DNA of 25,932 bases from Bacteroidales bacterium (GCA_900769035.1 CAAGFD010000017.1:1-25932); one strand, 5' to 3'. Positions 7,548 through 23,616 are shown, numbered from the stretch's first letter. A program made the numbers and translations. Notes: generated by a model not told the origin, from the sequence alone.

Positions 7548-9779
7548 CTATTTCGTGATACTTACTTTTTGCACCGCTTTGTCGGTTCTGATGATGTAAA
7601 TACCGTTGAGGTTACCGTTTAGGTTTGTAACGTCGCGACCGACAACATCGTAGATACGGAATTCACCATCGTAATGTACAGTGCCGTTTTCTACCCAAAG
7701 GTTTTCGATAACAGCCTCTTCTACAGCAGTAGGGTTAAGCTCAGTCTTACCTTGGATGTCTAAGAACTCTTGCCATACAGGTGCGTTTTGATAGTCGGTA
7801 AGTGCCACTTCAGGCACTACAAGGCGTGCACTGTCTTTTATTATTTCATTGAAATTGTCGGTAAAAGTAGTACTTTCGAATACAGCAGGAGTAACGTTTT
7901 TACATATAATAGTGCGGATATTTGGGCTATAAGTGAAAGCATCCTTTTCTATGTTTGTAACTTTTTTACCTATATCAATTCTTTCCAAGTTTGAACACCA
8001 AGAAAAAGTAGATTTTTTGATTGTTGTTACATTATTTGGTATAGATACTGAAGTGAAAAAATTTCCTGCAAAGGCGCCTTCTCCTATCTCGGTTACCGAT
8101 GTAGGTAAGTTAAGCACTTTTAAAGCAGCATAACTAAAAGCTAATTTTCCGATTGTTTCTAAACCGTCGTTGAAGATGACATTATTTAAGTTACTGTAAT
8201 AGAAAGCTTCATCGTCTATTTCTTTCAAGCTGGATGGTAATTTAATTACCTTTTGTTGATATTTAGATAAAGGGTAAGTATCGTAGAAAGCTTTATAACC
8301 TATTTTGGATACAGGATAGTTTACTCCTTGATAACTAACATATTCCGGAATGACGATAGTGTCGTTTTGGAATAGAGAGTAATAGCATTTGTTGTAGATT
8401 GTATCAATAGTAGTAATTGTTGCTTCGTTATTGTCGAGATAATAGAAGAATCCGTTGTCGTATTCGTCACTCTCTACAATATTCATATCTTTCCAATACA
8501 GGTCGGCTTTGTATGTGTTTATGTAAGGGGAGTCTACTTCTACAGTAATGTTTGCTTGGTTGTCGGCTGTGAAAGATACATCACATGGGTTTATTGAAGT
8601 GGCGACTATTGAGGTCAGATTACTACAATTGTCGAATGCAAGAAAGCCTATTGTATTGATGTTTTCACCTAAGATGATTTTCTCTAATGGAGTGTTATAA
8701 AATGCATAACTTCCAATATTTTGTACTGTGTTTGGTATGTATATATTCTTCAATTTTGTGTTGGCAAATGCGCTTCTGTTAATAGAGCGTAATGTAAGAG
8801 GCAATATTACCTCGGTTATATTTCTGCCATAATAAGCGGAATCCCCGATAGTTTCTATAGGATAATAATTAGAATTAATTATCATGTCGCCTAAATTGCC
8901 ATTTGTAGAACCTACAACCAACGTTTTTGTGGTTTTGTCAATAAGGCCGTAACCACCACTGTATCTTTTGTTTTTATAGCTTACATAAAAAGTTTCCAAG
9001 CTATCGCAAGTTTTGAACATTGTTGCATTGATATCTGCTGTACAGGTGTCTAAATCTACTTCTTTTAAACTTCTACAATTTTCAAATGCGTAATCACCTA
9101 TTGACCTTACATTTCTTGGTATATCTATATATTTGAGTGAAGAGCAATTATAGAATAACATTTTTGGCAATGTAGTTATATTCCCATGAGTGAGGTTTGT
9201 CACTCTTACTAAATTTGTGCAATCACTAAATACACCTTCGTCTAAAAAAACAACGTTATTTAAATTAATTGATGTTAGTGCTTCGCAATAGCGGAAGGCC
9301 TTTTTGAATATAAATCCACCTGCATTGTCGTCGAACGTTAATGAACAATTTGTCATTTTATCACATTTGTAGAAAGCAAATTCATAAATAGAGTTTATTC
9401 CAGTGCTTCCATACTTCATTGTTACGGAAGTTAGATTACGACAAGCATAGAATGCAGAGTCTTTGATTGATTGTACGAATTTAGGAAGAGTGATAGATGT
9501 GATGGTAGAATTTTTAAATGCACCTTGCTTGATATAGCGTACTTCGTAAGCATCAATGCCTTCTTCACTTGTACTGATTGAGTCCGGAATTACAATATTA
9601 CCTGTATAAGGTGTTACCGGGGTGGAACCTGTGTACTCGCGAGGGTTACATACATAAGCATAACGGTCAGTGCCATTTGATGTCAACCAGTACACTAATG
9701 TGCCATCGTAATAATAGCGCCCTGCAAAAGCAGAACATGCTAATGACAGAACAAAAAATAATGTAAATAGTTTTTTCAT
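7548..9779 (-). CDS. BspA-like leucine-rich-repeat (LRR_5) surface protein with signal peptide and probable T9SS C-terminal sorting domain
   Basis: 743 aa; signal peptide MKKLFTLFFVLSLACSAFA; many IPxxVxxIGxxAFxxCxxL repeats; C-terminal IYDVVGR...GIYII...QKVSITK. Confidence 0.88.
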   Translation of the reverse strand: MKKLFTLFFVLSLACSAFAGRYYYDGTLVYWLTSNGTDRYAYVCNPREYTGSTPVTPYTGNIVIPDSISTSEEGIDAYEVRYIKQGAFKNSTITSITLPKFVQSIKDSAFYACRNLTSVTMKYGSTGINSIYEFAFYKCDKMTNCSLTFDDNAGGFIFKKAFRYCEALTSINLNNVVFLDEGVFSDCTNLVRVTNLTHGNITTLPKMLFYNCSSLKYIDIPRNVRSIGDYAFENCRSLKEVDLDTCTADINATMFKTCDSLETFYVSYKNKRYSGGYGLIDKTTKTLVVGSTNGNLGDMIINSNYYPIETIGDSAYYGRNITEVILPLTLRSINRSAFANTKLKNIYIPNTVQNIGSYAFYNTPLEKIILGENINTIGFLAFDNCSNLTSIVATSINPCDVSFTADNQANITVEVDSPYINTYKADLYWKDMNIVESDEYDNGFFYYLDNNEATITTIDTIYNKCYYSLFQNDTIVIPEYVSYQGVNYPVSKIGYKAFYDTYPLSKYQQKVIKLPSSLKEIDDEAFYYSNLNNVIFNDGLETIGKLAFSYAALKVLNLPTSVTEIGEGAFAGNFFTSVSIPNNVTTIKKSTFSWCSNLERIDIGKKVTNIEKDAFTYSPNIRTIICKNVTPAVFESTTFTDNFNEIIKDSARLVVPEVALTDYQNAPVWQEFLDIQGKTELNPTAVEEAVIENLWVENGTVHYDGEFRIYDVVGRDVTNLNGNLNGIYIIRTDKAVQKVSITK

Positions 9780-9958: not shown

Positions 9959-10741
9959 TTATTCCCAATTGATTTTCGGAATGTTGTTATTTGTAAGCCA
10001 TTGATTTACAGCTACAAATTGATTTGAGCCCCAAAAGGAATTATCGCACAATCTGCCGAAATTATTACGTATGAAAGGATTTTTTGTAAGAGTTGTTACG
10101 CCTCTATGGTTGTAAATCATCTCGTGACCTTTCATTTTTTCCGGCTTTGAGGTTTTACCCCATGATAGCCCTGAGGGGTGTGTGGATGAATAAATGATAT
10201 GTTTTGAAGTATCTATATAATCCGACAGTTTTATAGCGCTGTTGCCCCACAGCATAAATGCGATGTTATTGTATTGTTGGCTCAGCTGTTTTATTATCTC
10301 GGATGTGAATTGTTGCCAACCGAATTTCCGGTGGCTATCTGCTTTGCCCGCCTCCACAGTGAGTGTGGCATTCAGCAGTAGTACCCCTTGAGTAGCCCAA
10401 CGTTCAAGGTTGCCCGTTGGCAGAGTGGCTATGTCGAGCTCCATTTCTATTTCTTGAAAGATGTGGTTTAGAGAACTCGGTATCTTTACACCATATGGTA
10501 CTGAAAAAGCCAATCCGTGCGCCTGCCCCGGCTCGTGATATGGGTCTTGCCCGATAATAACTACTTTTACATCTTTTGGTTTGGTGAGCTCCAATGCACG
10601 GAAGATGTTCTTTTCTGTCGGATATACTGTGGTGGTGGCGTAAGCGTCGGCAATTTTCTTTTCCAACATACGGAAGTCATTGCTACTTAAGTAGCTGTTT
10701 AGTAGCTCTTGCCATTCTGCGGGTATTAATTCTTTCAGCAT
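9959..10741 (-). CDS. ung: Uracil-DNA glycosylase, family 1, with an extended leucine loop
   Basis: 260 aa; VKVVIIGQDPYH, AHGLAFSV, WATQGVLLLNATLTV, SH..FGW, FMLWG, HPSGLS, terminal PKINWE. Confidence 0.93.
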   Translation of the reverse strand: MLKELIPAEWQELLNSYLSSNDFRMLEKKIADAYATTTVYPTEKNIFRALELTKPKDVKVVIIGQDPYHEPGQAHGLAFSVPYGVKIPSSLNHIFQEIEMELDIATLPTGNLERWATQGVLLLNATLTVEAGKADSHRKFGWQQFTSEIIKQLSQQYNNIAFMLWGNSAIKLSDYIDTSKHIIYSSTHPSGLSWGKTSKPEKMKGHEMIYNHRGVTTLTKNPFIRNNFGRLCDNSFWGSNQFVAVNQWLTNNNIPKINWE

Positions 10742-15284: not shown

Positions 15285-15419
15285 CTACTTTATATCCCCC
15301 AGCATCCCTTTGATTTGCTTATCGAAGTCAGAGTCGATACGTTGTGTCTTGTTGAAAATATCATATTCACTTTCAGCCTTTTCTTTGGCTTGTGCGACAG
15401 AAATACGTCCTTTGTCGGA
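15285..15419 (-). pseudogene. rhuM: C-terminal fragment of a RhuM-family gene (not in the ORF track)
   Basis: Manual translation 15419->15285: SDKGRISVAQAKEKAESEYDIFNKTQRIDSDFDKQIKGMLGDIK*, matching the RhuM C-terminal pattern GxIS..QA..KA..EY..F......SDFD; no in-frame ATG before the upstream stop at 15462-15464. Confidence 0.8.
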
Positions 15420-15449
15420 GTGGTTGGCATCAACTTGCGGATTATTTCG

Positions 15450-15527: not shown

Positions 15528-16553
15528 ATGAGTATGACAGAGAATAGAATAATTGCGAATAACGGGTCGTCTATTGTACTCTATACAACAGAAGATGGCA
15601 ATACCCAACTTGAAGTGAAGTTAGAGAAAGATACCGTGTGGCTTACACAAAGCCAGATGGCAGAATTATTTGGAAGAGACCGATCTGTAATAGCTCGCCA
15701 TATAAGAAACATATTTAAAGAGGGAGAACTAGATAAAACCTTGGTATGTGCAAAAAATGCACAACCCAAGAAATATGGTCGGCGAGATAATTATATCCAG
15801 TTATCCGAAACAATATACTATAATCTTGACGTAATCATATCTGTAGGTTATAGGGTTAAGAGTATTAATGGCACAAAATTTAGGATTTGGGCTTCAGCCC
15901 TTATCAAACAGTACCTTATCAAAGGCTATGTTATCGACCAACGTCGCCTCGACCACTATAACGAATTGAAAGATGTAGTGCGGTTGATGTCTCGTGCCCT
16001 TACTCTCCAAGACAAGGTTTCAGAGGGAGAATATACCGGTCTGTTCAATGTTATTTCCGATTATGTCTATGCCCTAGATACGCTCGACCGCTACGACTAT
16101 CAGTCTTTGGACATTGAGAAGACGACAAAAGAAGAACCTTTCCGTGCCACCTATGAGAATGCCATGGGTGCCATCAATGCATTGAAGGTGAAGTTTGGTG
16201 GTAGCCAATGGTTTGCCAACGAGAAAGATGATTCGTTTAAAAGTAGCATCGGGCAGATTTACCAGACATTTGGTGGTGAAGACCTCTACCCGTCAGTAGA
16301 GGAAAAGGCTGCCATGCTACTTTATCTCGTAGTGAAGAATCATTCGTTCAGCGACGGAAACAAACGTATTGCAGCCATGCTCTTCCTGTGGTTTATGGAG
16401 AAGAACGGAATCCTTTATTCCGCAGACGGCAGAAAGCGTATAGCAGACAACACTCTCGTTGCCCTGACATTGATGATTGCCGAGAGCCGTACGGAAGAGA
16501 AAGATGTCATGGTGAAAGTCGTGGTCAATCTTATCAACAAGGACAATCAATAA
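15528..16553 (+). CDS. RhuM/Fic/DOC family protein (RhuM-like N-terminal domain plus Fido domain)
   Basis: 341 aa; N-terminal TVWLTQSQMAELF...I.RHIRNIFKEGEL and YNLDVIISVGYRVKS..G.KFRIWA; C-terminal YPSVEEKAAMLLY and Doc-type motif HSFSDGNKRIA. Confidence 0.9.
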   Translation: MSMTENRIIANNGSSIVLYTTEDGNTQLEVKLEKDTVWLTQSQMAELFGRDRSVIARHIRNIFKEGELDKTLVCAKNAQPKKYGRRDNYIQLSETIYYNLDVIISVGYRVKSINGTKFRIWASALIKQYLIKGYVIDQRRLDHYNELKDVVRLMSRALTLQDKVSEGEYTGLFNVISDYVYALDTLDRYDYQSLDIEKTTKEEPFRATYENAMGAINALKVKFGGSQWFANEKDDSFKSSIGQIYQTFGGEDLYPSVEEKAAMLLYLVVKNHSFSDGNKRIAAMLFLWFMEKNGILYSADGRKRIADNTLVALTLMIAESRTEEKDVMVKVVVNLINKDNQ

Positions 16554-16569
16554 GTAATATTATGCAAAT

Positions 16570-16715
16570 GACTTATTGTTCGTTTTTTACAGACGTTTTG
16601 ACTTTGTATTCATCTTTCTTACGCAGAATGGTTCTAACAAACAAGTCTCTCCTCTTGCTCGTTCGTTAGTTGTCGCTATGGCATAACATAGGGATAGTTG
16701 GGTTTTGCTCATTTG
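16570..16715. repeat. Copy A of a 146-bp structured intergenic repeat (REP/MITE-like element or ncRNA)
   Basis: Aligns in direct orientation with 23471-23616; 43/46 identity over 16642-16687 vs 23544-23589, including a 25-nt exact match. Confidence 0.8.
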
Positions 16716-16851
16716 GCTTATCAAGAATATTTCGTTTTTAAGTGTACGCTTAAGGGTAAACATACGTATAAAATAATGACAAGATAGCATACGAACGGTA
16801 TGAAGATGAATTTTATTAGGAAAAAAATTAACTATATATTTTAATATTATT

Positions 16852-17736
16852 ATGAATAAAGACATTATTACTACAATCCAAGCTTTGTTATCAGGGCGTA
16901 ATGAAGATTTTGACCAAGCAAACAAAAGGCGAGTGAAATTAATTCGTCATAAGGATAATAGTAAAGAAAAAGTTATAGATAGCAAAACATACAAGGAATC
17001 TCTGTTCGATTTATACCTTAATGAAAACGCAGTATTCTTGGAATATCAAAGTGAACAATTAAGAAAGAACTTCGAAAAAATAGATTATATTGTGTCTTTT
17101 ATAGGAGAAGAAGGTATCACATCAAGATTTCTTGGTGTTTATAAGAATAATGGTGTTATAGCAGAATTAGGTCTTTATAAAGGAGAAGAGTTAGTGAAAT
17201 TTGATTTTCAAGAATTGTCAGGCTTTGAATTGTTAAAAGAACGAATAGTTATTGACTGGAAAAGCCCTGTTATGTGGCATCAATATTACGAGAATGAGAT
17301 GCCAGTTGTTCGTATAGATAGAGGATTGACAGAAAATCATATCCCTGTATTCAAAAGTTTTGAAGATGTTGTGTTGGATTACAACCAACTTAAACGAATA
17401 TTTGAAACTAATAATGCGGAATGGAAATCGAAATTGGAGAGTTGCAACGGAATCTATATGATATTGGATAAAAAATGTGGTAGACAATATGTTGGATCTA
17501 CATACAATAGAGATGGCATTTGGGGACGTTGGAAGCAATACGTAGAAACAGGACATGGAGGCGACAAAGATTTGAAACCGCCGCTGGCTGATGATAGTAA
17601 CTATGCTGCAAAGTATTTCCAATGGTGTATTCTCGAAACACTTCCATTAAAGATATTGGAAGACCAAGCCATAGACAGAGAGTCCTTATATAAACGTAAA
17701 TTTGGGACAAGAGAATTTGGTTATAATAATAATTAA
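16852..17736 (+). CDS. GIY-YIG nuclease family protein (uncharacterised N-terminal domain, C-terminal GIY-YIG domain)
   Basis: 294 aa; GIYMILD....RQYVGS, GIWGRW..Y..TGHGG, RESLYKRKF...EFGYNNN; the expected catalytic Tyr/Arg/Glu/Asn positions are present. Confidence 0.88.
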   Translation: MNKDIITTIQALLSGRNEDFDQANKRRVKLIRHKDNSKEKVIDSKTYKESLFDLYLNENAVFLEYQSEQLRKNFEKIDYIVSFIGEEGITSRFLGVYKNNGVIAELGLYKGEELVKFDFQELSGFELLKERIVIDWKSPVMWHQYYENEMPVVRIDRGLTENHIPVFKSFEDVVLDYNQLKRIFETNNAEWKSKLESCNGIYMILDKKCGRQYVGSTYNRDGIWGRWKQYVETGHGGDKDLKPPLADDSNYAAKYFQWCILETLPLKILEDQAIDRESLYKRKFGTREFGYNNN

Positions 17737-17749
17737 TCAAAAAACAACT

Positions 17750-18469
17750 ATGAGCAATATGAAAAATAATATGCGCTCTGTACTCGAGTCTTTTCAAGGT
17801 GTAGCAGAGATTAAAAACGAGAAAGAGAAACTTTTAAGTCTTTCTTCTCAGTTCGAAACAATTGCCAGGGAGGTTCTCCTTGGAGGATGTTTCGATATTA
17901 ATGGAGTGCGGAGAATTTATCCTCTTGAAATAGAATTCTATTACCATGAAGAGGGTGAGAATGGCTTGAAAGACCATATTATGTATCATACTAATGACCA
18001 TGAAGGGAAACCACTTGCCTATTATTCCTTAGGAACTTTAAATTGTCATATCTCAGGCATAGATGTTACTTTTGAGAATAAAGAAAAGCAATATAGGGCA
18101 TCTTTCTTGATTAGGGAATATAGAGTATGCGAATACGAGTCTGGCGCGTGGTTGGAAAAGAAAGTTCGTGAGAAACGTCCTACCTATCTCTACGAAGATA
18201 TGTTTATGAATATCTCATTTTTTGATGGTATAACCATTAAATGGGTATCAGGAGACCCTGTAAATCTAACCAAGGAAATATGTCGTAAACAGAGAGTTCA
18301 TGTGGCTGAATATAAAAGGAATAATGATAACAAAGTCATAAAAGTCGAAATAACAAAAGATGAATACGACAAACTATCAGATATAGAGCAACAGGAATAC
18401 TTTTCATATTCTGGAAAGAAACTGAAAAAGTGCAAACGAATGTGGAATTATTCTATTATAAATGATTAG
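17750..18469 (+). CDS. Hypothetical protein with AAG/MPG (3-methyladenine DNA glycosylase)-like motifs
   Basis: ATG at 17750 preferred over TTG at 17702 (13 nt after the GIY-YIG stop, A-rich leader); 239 aa; LLG..., EIEFY...D....H and ASFLIR resemble the AAG motifs LLG, ETEAY...D...H and AVLIR. The CDS is well supported; the product is tentative. Confidence 0.6.
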   Translation: MSNMKNNMRSVLESFQGVAEIKNEKEKLLSLSSQFETIAREVLLGGCFDINGVRRIYPLEIEFYYHEEGENGLKDHIMYHTNDHEGKPLAYYSLGTLNCHISGIDVTFENKEKQYRASFLIREYRVCEYESGAWLEKKVREKRPTYLYEDMFMNISFFDGITIKWVSGDPVNLTKEICRKQRVHVAEYKRNNDNKVIKVEITKDEYDKLSDIEQQEYFSYSGKKLKKCKRMWNYSIIND

Positions 18470-19325
18470 TAAAGACAAAATGGAAATTTGTATATCTGAA
18501 TGGCTTAGTAAAGACTACCCGGAAGTGTATGCCTCATTGTGCGATGCTTTTAATCAGAGTAATATCAACTGTCAAGTCCTCACTCATACCAAAGATGTGT
18601 GGGCAAGGGATTATATGCCTTTGCATATTGGCAATGGCGGATACGTAACCTTTAATTATGAACCCGACTATCTTGTTGAGAAAAATGATAAATACATAAC
18701 TAATCAGAACAATGTCATTCAAGACATTGACCTTAATGTGGTAGCCCATCTTGACATCGTGATGGATGGTGGTAACGTGGTGAGATGTGGAGATAAAGTC
18801 ATCATGACAGACAAAATCATATCTGAAAATCCAAACATCCGTCCCTTAAAATTGATAGATACAATAGAGAATACGCTGAATTCAGAATTGATACTGATTC
18901 CTTGGGATATGGAAGAACCATTTGGTCATGCCGACGGGATGGTAGCTTATATTGGAGATGAAAAACTACTTATGAACAACTATGTTCAGATGGGGAAAGA
19001 GGCAGATTCATTTCGCAAAAGACTCCATAAGATACTTGACTGCCATTTTGATGTTATGGAACTGTCGTATAGTGGCAGACTTAGAAAAGACGCTTGGTGT
19101 TATCTCAACTATGTGGAAACGCCAAAAACAATTATTATTTCTGGCTTGTCAAAAAAACTTGATTGTGAAAATGATAAGTCGGCAGTTAAGGTTTTCTCAG
19201 AAATATTTCCTGCCAAGAAAATAATTCAAGTTTATGTAGCTCCCCTACTCAGATATGGAGGAGCATTGCATTGTGTAACATGGGAATTATATACCGCTCA
19301 TCGTCCATCACGAATCCTTTCTTAA
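18462..19325 (+). CDS. Agmatine deiminase / peptidylarginine deiminase-like pentein enzyme
   Basis: 287 aa; WARDYMP, DGGNVV, GHADG, YLNY, GGALHCVTW, so the Asp/His/Cys catalytic residues are present; 8-nt overlap with the upstream gene. Confidence 0.87.
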   Translation: MISKDKMEICISEWLSKDYPEVYASLCDAFNQSNINCQVLTHTKDVWARDYMPLHIGNGGYVTFNYEPDYLVEKNDKYITNQNNVIQDIDLNVVAHLDIVMDGGNVVRCGDKVIMTDKIISENPNIRPLKLIDTIENTLNSELILIPWDMEEPFGHADGMVAYIGDEKLLMNNYVQMGKEADSFRKRLHKILDCHFDVMELSYSGRLRKDAWCYLNYVETPKTIIISGLSKKLDCENDKSAVKVFSEIFPAKKIIQVYVAPLLRYGGALHCVTWELYTAHRPSRILS

Positions 19326-19680
19326 TGTATTCGTTCAGAATCTTTGTTGCCCATTGACGGAAGCGAGTTGCCTTAGGCGAAGAGACACGATAGCCTACAG
19401 CAATAATCATATCCAAATTATAGAAGTCAACCAGTTCTTCCACCTCTCCTCTAATACCCCTATTTACGACGGTTGCAATTTTTGCAACTGTCGTGTCCTG
19501 CTGCAGTTCGTCTTCCTTAAAAATATTGGATATGTGGCGACTAATGCCTGACTTATCCACCCCAAAAAGCTGTGCCATAGCCTTCTGAGTACACCAGATG
19601 GTCTCGTCCTTGATGACCACCTGTACCTTGCCCTCCTCGTCGGGTAGGCTATATAACAGGAATTGTATTTCGTTACTAAT
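19294..19680 (-). pseudogene. rhuM: N-terminal fragment of a RhuM-family gene
   Basis: SNEIQFLLY..DETIWCTQKAMAQLF..ISRHISNIFKEDEL..YNLDMIIAVGYRV.S.KATRFRQWAT..L.EYIKKGFVMDDER, after which similarity stops; the expected start position reads ATT (19678-19680). Confidence 0.82.
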
Positions 19681-19690
19681 TGTTAGATAA

Positions 19691-19951
19691 TTATTCTTCA
19701 TTATTCTCATTAAGAAGGTATTCATATTGAGTGTTTTTTAGGCTCTCCCTATCATATTCTTTGCGATACTCCATTATGTAAAAACTAACTATTTCCGGAT
19801 ATATGTAAAAATATGTGCGACATATCTTCTTGAAAAGTGTCGGCATACGATTATCATCCACAAAATCAAACATCCAAGTAAGCAGATGGTCAACTTCGTC
19901 TTTGGATGCTTTTCTATTGCATATATCATCTACAAAATTCTTAAATATAGA
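19691..19951 (-). pseudogene. 5'-truncated small hypothetical gene upstream of rhuM
   Basis: The frame stays open upstream of the tracked ORF (SIFKNFVDDICNRKASKDEVDHLLTW-MFDF...) to a TAG at 19952-19954 with no ATG; protein-like sequence; its stop lies 10 nt before the rhuM start position. Confidence 0.5.
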
Positions 19952-23470: not shown

Positions 23471-23616
23471 GATTTATTATTCGTTTTCAACAGACTTTTT
23501 TGACTTTATTGGCTTCCTCCTCACTCGGGATAGCCCTGGCAAGCAAGTCTCTCCTCTTGCTCGTTCGTCAGTTGTCCCCATGGCATAACCAAATCAAGCT
23601 TTGTTCTGCTCATTTG
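23471..23616. repeat. Copy B of the 146-bp structured intergenic repeat
   Basis: Aligns with 16570-16715; lies in the divergent topA / IscU-like intergenic region. Confidence 0.8.

Follow-up and report, generated by a model that had tools for sequence, protein, structure and literature searches.

We analysed a stretch of 25,932 nucleotides from a Bacteroidales bacterium (GCA_900769035.1 CAAGFD010000017.1:1-25932, here called the window), and focused on three co-oriented open reading frames (ORFs) of its plus strand that occupy positions 16,852 to 19,325. Gene 1 (16852..17736, 294 amino acids) corresponds to the GIY-YIG nuclease of Uzume (UzuA), a known single-gene defence system. It is followed after a gap of 13 nt by gene 2 (17750..18469, 239 amino acids from the ATG at 17750), predicted from its modelled structure and motifs to be a divergent AAG/MPG-fold DNA glycosylase of an unnamed family. 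Gene 3 (18462..19325, 287 amino acids) overlaps gene 2 by 8 nt and was placed by profile, Foldseek and motifs in an accessory clade of short pentein deiminases (PF04371). Genes 2 and 3 are the core genes of the module described here, and gene 1 occupies the slot upstream of gene 2 as a passenger.

An initial annotation of this DNA had reported the same orientation and spacing, intact-looking catalytic motifs and the three fold assignments (GIY-YIG, AAG-like and pentein). The ORF coordinates, the catalytic residues (the GIY-YIG motif of gene 1, E62 of gene 2 and D50/H156/D158/C271 of gene 3), and the profile and structure comparisons all agreed with this. It had also called the genes AT-rich; their GC contents (33%, 35% and 37% for genes 1, 2 and 3) were indeed lower than those of the flanking housekeeping genes in the window, but just slightly below the 37.0% of the genome. 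The dN/dS values (0.07 for gene 1, 0.19-0.26 for gene 2 and 0.11-0.19 for gene 3) established that purifying selection acts on all three genes.

The gene 2-gene 3 pair

We examined how often genes 2 and 3 occur together. In the GTDB gene-2 sample, a deiminase of the gene 3 clade was present within 1.7 kb of gene 2 at 50 of 80 loci (41 of the 63 whose flanks each reached 1 kb or more). Gene 2 was found beside the deiminase at 64 of 80 metagenomic deiminase loci, and at three of four outside the order. These 80-locus samples comprised the best 80 of 124 and the best 80 of 553 loci, and the GTDB sample was rich in related Segatella loci, so that an evenly drawn sample of 401 genomes of the order weighs more. 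Here 18 of 22 gene-2 matches lay within 1.6 kb of a clade deiminase (12/12 strong and 6/10 weak matches). The 138 non-redundant pairs, which fell into 41 clusters at 60% identity, comprised 87 with gene 2 first, 44 with the deiminase first, four on opposite strands and three fused; 99 of the 131 co-oriented pairs were separated by 30 nt or less. PF04371 was carried by 8 of 11 long gene-2 homologues, and gene 2-deiminase fusions were observed in both orders. Genes 2 and 3 are thus a conserved, widespread and repeatedly fused module. The tight linkage and fusion across Bacteroidales agree with the earlier suggestion that the deiminase and the glycosylase act jointly on DNA, although gene 1, which that suggestion had included, was not part of the unit.

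Profile searches of Pfam, NCBIfam and PADLOC found no family for gene 2, and its own profile was matched by 431 clusters at 50% identity. The AF2 model of gene 2 (pLDDT 92) aligned with human AAG (1ewn) with a Z of 10.5 and an rmsd of 3.4 over 148 residues. This likeness was found by wide structural alignment only, where the AAG matches reached Z 10.5 and 9.7 and every other fold 5.7 or less; Foldseek on the PDB missed AAG, and sequence searches of the PDB with the gene-2 profiles returned nothing meaningful. Gene 2 itself did not match PF02245, and 5 of 21 divergent members matched it under the cut-off (best relative E 3.7e-5). When the gene 2 profile was aligned with ten canonical MPGs by hhalign (probability 69%, E 4.5e-5), EIEFY was paired with EVEAY and LIR with LLR, together with C-terminal R and W-x-F motifs. 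E62 and R122 of gene 2 were thereby aligned with the catalytic Glu (EVEAY) and the invariant Arg (LLR) of canonical MPG, which we take to be E125 and R182 in human AAG numbering.

E62 of the EIEFY motif was present in 99-100% of 180 gene-2 relatives, and E62, Y64, D75, G103, D105, R122 and R182 were 94-100% conserved, with or without a deiminase neighbour. We conclude that gene 2, as far as the model and the motifs indicate, is a divergent AAG-fold glycosylase. In one of two profile alignments D105 falls on the Asn that excludes guanine in human AAG (N169, according to passages of PMC5363859), which suggests a perhaps shifted base preference. A search of BFVD with the gene-2 model gave, as the sole significant viral matches, two uncharacterised giant-virus proteins, A0A1V0SB56 and A0A3G5A9Y1 (Catovirus, Hyperionvirus).

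Gene 3 matched the Pfam family PAD_porph (PF04371) at 2.4e-20. Its best Foldseek matches were agmatine deiminases (6b10, E 3e-15), with PPAD also among the matches, and D50, H156, D158 and C271 were conserved in 98-100% of 132 clade members. Compared with agmatine deiminases, the clade was about 60 residues shorter (median 284 versus 345 amino acids) and lacked about 40 N-terminal residues (48 versus 86 residues ahead of WxRD). The FNGWG loop was replaced by Y-x-PDYL and EGGS by DGGN, and the N-terminal WP loop was absent or replaced. Against the aguA profile TIGR03380 gene 3 scored 34.6 bits, where the cut-off is 381.8. Across the 401 genomes the clade and aguA scores were bimodal and cleanly separated, and the host genome carries a separate housekeeping aguA. 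On sequence grounds, gene 3 is an accessory pentein, a predicted deiminase distinct from the housekeeping agmatine deiminase; databases annotate the clade as agmatine deiminase. The trimming and the lid swap would open the active-site funnel to a macromolecule. Within the order, 48 of 400 sampled genomes (~12%) carried the clade, as did four further genomes in a 351-genome sample of the phylum.

Penteins were observed in phages as well. A PF04371 pentein with the DGGN motif of the clade lies two genes before the portal gene in Bacteroides phage SJC03_194 (L207:11518-12570) and in DAC16/19/20/22/23; the phages with this arrangement are large B. thetaiotaomicron phages. On viral contigs L191, L192, L195 and L196 (and L193, L194), genes for a DDAH/amidinotransferase-like protein, a short deiminase and a phosphatidylserine-decarboxylase-like protein lie close to structural genes, and such contigs might supply guanidino chemistry to phages.

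The deiminase was also found with other partners. At 53 deiminase loci of the order sample the partner was gene 2 at 28 (including G380), a TIGR04274-like protein at 5, an HNH-like protein at 8 (one of them fused to the deiminase) and just another uracil-DNA glycosylase (UDG)-like protein at 1, while 11 had none of these. Because the profiles for HNH and UDG-like proteins derive from the very loci counted, the minor-partner numbers are descriptive and carry no test. The TIGR04274-like homologues of hypoxanthine glycosylase scored below the cut-off. On a FastTree phylogeny of 73 deiminases, rooted with aguA, the partner types were interleaved, as where L091 (gene 2) groups with L092 (UDG-like) at a support of 0.99. 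The only trait common to the partner types is action on DNA. Purine excision is canonical for the hypoxanthine-glycosylase-type fold, and the AAG fold, as described in parts of PMC5363859 and PMC10317176, canonically excises purines too.

Gene 2 without a deiminase was often fused to a PD-(D/E)xK/SMEK-like nuclease (7/80). We looked at ten whole genomes with a deiminase-free gene-2 locus: three had a clade deiminase elsewhere and seven had none, one of these with a broken gene 2. An intact gene 2 in six genomes in which no clade deiminase was found fits the deiminase as an accessory enzyme.

Several further proteins were seen at these loci. The HNH-like proteins belong to an unnamed family (CxYC...LEIDR...CYWCNNAK) coupled or fused to the deiminase at L095, L100, L103, L139, L146, L149, L154 and L208, and at L139 the HNH-like domain is fused to a UDG-like domain. 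An unnamed domain of ~110 amino acids occurs between the glycosylase and the deiminase, or fused to them (L108:2471-2815, L109, L138, L209, P0328). In Segatella copri (L057, L060, L069, L070 versus L058, L059, L067) an ADP-ribosylglycohydrolase gene replaces the deiminase right after gene 2 or comes a few genes later.

Uzume and the inserted cassette

Gene 1 matched the PADLOC UzuA profile PDLC03973 at 4.1e-80 over its full length (residues 8-294 against 4-278 of 278), and carried a C-terminal GIY-YIG domain (Pfam, 199-291) with the motif residues GIY200, YVG213, R227 and E277. We conclude that gene 1 is the named system Uzume, and the anti-phage activity of this allele is predicted. Uzume is reportedly to be attributed to Millman 2022, in the preprint of which the name does not occur.

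The initial annotation had taken the three genes as one undescribed system, but co-occurrence spoke against this, and the trio as a single system was rejected. Uzume was present within 1.7 kb of gene 2 at 1 of 80 GTDB gene-2 loci (L006, a close relative), and within 1.7 kb of the gene 3 clade at 1 of 53 order-sample and 0 of 80 metagenomic loci. Gene 2 was found at none of 18 other Uzume loci in 400 genomes (1.5-kb flanks, some ending at contig ends), and across these loci Uzume had no fixed partner. An obligate system of Uzume, glycosylase and deiminase could draw on the 13-nt spacing, on the recurrence of the trio in L006 at 81% nucleotide identity, on G129, where Uzume is one gene upstream of a clade deiminase, and on other nucleases filling the slot at some loci. 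A minority of loci do show a layout of nuclease, glycosylase and deiminase, with nucleases other than Uzume (PD-(D/E)xK/SMEK-like in L004, L009, L012, L038, L104 and L234; the UDG-like-HNH fusion in L139). However, apart from the rarity of Uzume at pair loci, the close relatives L005, L008, L011 and L035 carry the pair without a recognised nuclease, and Uzume is catalogued as a single-gene GIY-YIG system in the consulted part of 10.1101/2024.10.26.620412. We therefore find an obligate trio hardly credible: Uzume is an independent defence gene stacked in the same cassette, and an occasional passenger.

The cassette starts with a RhuM-Fic gene (15528..16553, plus strand; PADLOC candidate PDC-S23), identified by profile matches. 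Profile matches also identified, at 19249..19725 (minus strand), the 5' portion of a PDC-S05-like rhuM gene that has been interrupted; it shares 77 nt with the end of gene 3. What is left of the 3' end of this rhuM gene is probably 15288..15440 (minus strand), across the cassette, recognised in translation by a RhuM C-terminal motif. The cassette of RhuM-Fic and genes 1, 2 and 3 thus appears to interrupt an opposite-strand rhuM gene. The insertion, of about 4.9 kb, lies between a type II dehydroquinase gene and a thioredoxin-like gene, which are only ~50 nt apart in the same-genus genome G002. This empty site, with the RhuM-Fic and truncated rhuM genes, upheld the insertion in a RhuM/Fic setting described initially. 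RhuM-Fic was also near gene 2 in L004, L005, L006, L007 and L010, and at another site of G002 (L002, G002:C19) it adjoins a short, stop-interrupted gene 2 remnant, a decayed copy of the cassette.

An interspersed non-coding repeat of ~150 bp was present at 16570-16720, upstream of Uzume, and at 23471-23616 of the window, on contigs C90, C154, C97, C241 and C298 of the same genome (G000), and in the relative G002; longer copies were 72-79% identical. It had no Rfam match, and its folding energy was ordinary (z -0.63). Promoter scans were at chance (20 found versus 17.8 expected; for TAnnTTTG, 9 versus 10.9). Elsewhere in the window, a leucine-rich-repeat surface-type protein (7548-9779, minus strand) and an ordinary uracil-DNA glycosylase (9959-10741, minus strand) were recognised by eye from translation.

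The neighbours of the pair were variable, and included restriction enzymes, GmrSD, Tmn, TIR-NLR, PARIS, MzaE, WYL and PDC candidates. PADLOC matches were obtained for 30 of 149 neighbour representatives, a scan that omitted 22 of 171, including two RhuM proteins and one Uzume. In a control that took 73 of 114 test neighbours, with proteins cut to 500 amino acids, strong matches (E<=1e-50) were found for 9 of 73 pair neighbours versus 1 of 77 genes around housekeeping aguA; at any E-value, however, the enrichment was modest (14/73 versus 6/77; Fisher p 0.054, kin not being independent). The pair was also carried on prophage-like contigs and plasmids, and its insertion sites vary. The mobile, defence-type setting that had been proposed was supported by the inserted cassette, the empty site in a relative and the PADLOC-matched neighbours, and the genomic setting moderately backs a role in conflict.

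Proposed mechanism and alternatives

In the Brig3-BapA system, as given in the consulted part of 10.64898/2026.02.25.707755, two genes overlap and BapA strips a decoration so that the anti-phage glycosylase Brig3 can act. By analogy, we propose that genes 2 and 3 form a mobile two-gene module for modification-dependent defence, which would trim and then excise an amidino/guanidino-decorated base, a predicted activity that we judge equally liable to prove right or wrong. The Cys/His/Asp site of gene 3 would act on a decorated base in the invading DNA and hydrolyse its amidino or guanidino group, turning C(=NH)NH2 into C(=O)NH2 with release of ammonia. Gene 2, in which the fold and the catalytic Glu are seen, would flip out and excise the resulting purine-like base, and the abasic sites left behind would stop phage replication. 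The glycosylase might act alone on some base, with the deiminase widening its range, as BapA does for Brig3.

To our knowledge, deoxyarchaeosine (dG+) is the only amidine-bearing phage base. The conversion of dG+ to dADG is the one expected from pentein chemistry and would be, by our reasoning, the one known conversion that fits; both are documented bases (PMC6884629, in part). As the exact substrate dG+ is the leading known candidate, yet an unlikely one, and a guanidino-decorated base not yet known is possible but doubtful. In the portion of 10.1101/2025.10.29.685425 consulted, most Dag glycosylases stop the 7-deazaguanine phage VP1 but fail against preQ0 and G+ phages, and a pair that trims and then excises would fill this gap. 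We suggest, tentatively and with less assurance than for the two-gene module, that a pentein was remodelled into a DNA-editing deiminase and works as a plug-in adaptor, serving three or more effectors unrelated to one another (an AAG-fold glycosylase, a hypoxanthine-glycosylase-like UDG and an HNH nuclease). With it, gut Bacteroidales could break down phage DNA bearing dG+ or an undiscovered guanidino-decorated base.

Several results weigh against the trim-then-excise proposal. Of the 53 deiminase loci, 11 had no recognised partner, the counts of the minor partners are descriptive, and the distances of genes 2 and 3 co-vary weakly (Spearman 0.27, against a permutation maximum of 0.18). The Tyr wedge hairpin of AAG (Y162) is not conserved in the gene 2 family, and D105 meets the MPG Asn in just one of two alignments. 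With a clade median pI of 5.5 (5.0 for aguA), the deiminase is not a basic protein, so that charge gives no evidence of DNA binding. Related penteins sit in modules of phage head genes, a location that suggests proteins or small molecules as the substrates of these relatives. No Bacteroidales phage was among the matches listed to Gat-QueC (60 of 144) or DpdA (60 of 233) of phage 9g, and Bacteroidales were not mentioned in the dG+ papers searched. Many neighbours were generic hotspot genes, and the PADLOC enrichment at any E-value was modest.

The deiminase might instead target protein arginine, citrullinating either its DNA-damaging partner, as a switch or antitoxin, or a phage protein, with gene 2, the HNH or the UDG-like protein as the effector. 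The DGGN motif and the lost agmatine lid, PPAD among the structural matches, the relatives in phage head modules and a single deiminase type common to unrelated effectors are consistent with this. So is the recurrence, beside or instead of the deiminase, of ADP-ribosylglycohydrolases, which are also arginine-directed. However, the six genomes with an intact gene 2 in which no clade deiminase was found are unlike what an obligatory antitoxin would leave, and one antitoxin for three unrelated folds is less economical than a single shared DNA substrate; we regard citrullination as unlikely. Another explanation is that the pair is a two-step host repair system for a guanidino- or amidino-bearing lesion or for the damage of a competitor toxin. 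AAG and hypoxanthine glycosylases are repair folds, no canonical MPG match was found in the host genome, and a repair enzyme within a conflict locus has a precedent (PMC13648612, from the part consulted). The patchy distribution (48/400 genomes), variable insertion sites and carriage on prophages and plasmids fit conflict better, and at some loci the glycosylase is replaced by HNH nucleases, which makes host repair quite improbable.

The initial annotation had also offered polyamine depletion, in which gene 3, as a metabolic agmatine deiminase, would drain or alter polyamines in infection, its neighbour being incidental or a second arm. Agmatine deiminases are the best structural matches, the acidic residue four before the catalytic His is retained, and the database label says the same. 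This alternative proved weak, and we consider it very unlikely: gene 3 reaches 35 of the 382 bits on the aguA profile, the same genome has its separate aguA, the lid motifs differ, and fusion in both orders to DNA enzymes is left unexplained. If the trim-then-excise proposal is true, glycosylase-based immunity would gain the AAG fold and, with deimination on DNA, a new chemistry. The adaptor reading would give, as far as searched, the first case of a pentein that acts on DNA and of an anti-phage glycosylase with the AAG fold, and would imply a base modification still to be found in phages of Bacteroidales. The pair has been hidden by its annotation as 'agmatine deiminase' and 'hypothetical protein', and offers a probe of unknown modifications in gut Bacteroidales phages.

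Comparison with known systems

Gene 1 is a full-length member of Uzume (PDLC03973/4), stacked beside the pair, and no difference was found. The novelty claimed initially did not hold for this gene; it would stand for genes 2 and 3, for neither of which PADLOC 2.0 has a model. Among the papers listed by full-text literature searches, judged on titles and the opening of abstracts, none described a deiminase-glycosylase defence pair, with an earlier computational mention possible, e.g. in preprint supplements. The pair is apparently undescribed; its working principle is already known, and both enzymes would be new to it. We know of glycosylase-based immunity so far only for UDG- and HhH-type folds, and of BapA as the one known unmasking accessory enzyme.

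Gene 3 shares the pentein fold and the Asp/His/Asp/Cys catalytic set with AguA (TIGR03380; 6b10, 2jer) and PPAD. It differs from both in its shorter length (by ~60 residues), in DGGN for EGGS and YxPDYL for FNGWG, and in the invariant W212/W274. From AguA it further differs in that the clade is far under the cut-off, and the housekeeping aguA context was never seen for the clade here. Gene 2 shares with human AAG and bacterial MPG (PF02245; 1ewn) the fold (Z 10.5) and the ExEAY-, LLR-, RIG- and WRF-type motifs. In contrast to these enzymes, it is 14% identical, falls under the Pfam cut-off, lacks the Tyr wedge motif and has an invariant G103-x-D105, and it is patchy, mobile and coupled to a deiminase.

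Dag1/Dag2 and related enzymes are likewise mobile, divergent glycosylases, and attack 7-deazaguanine-modified phage DNA (10.1101/2025.10.29.685425, main text); they are single genes of HhH and UDG folds, whereas the gene 2 model matches AAG and not HhH. The terms AAG, MPG, methylpurine and deiminase are absent from that main text. The nearest likeness in layout, a glycosylase with a decoration-removing partner, is Brig3-BapA, in which Brig3 works alone on the undecorated base, as the consulted part of 10.64898/2026.02.25.707755 describes. That part makes no mention of a deiminase, and gene 2 had no match to Brig1 in NCBIfam or to UDG in Pfam. Brig3, named for its homology to Brig1/Brig2, has 5hmC as its target, and its partner BapA is a glucosyl hydrolase, whereas the pair described here would consist of an AAG/MPG-fold protein and a Cys-dependent pentein.

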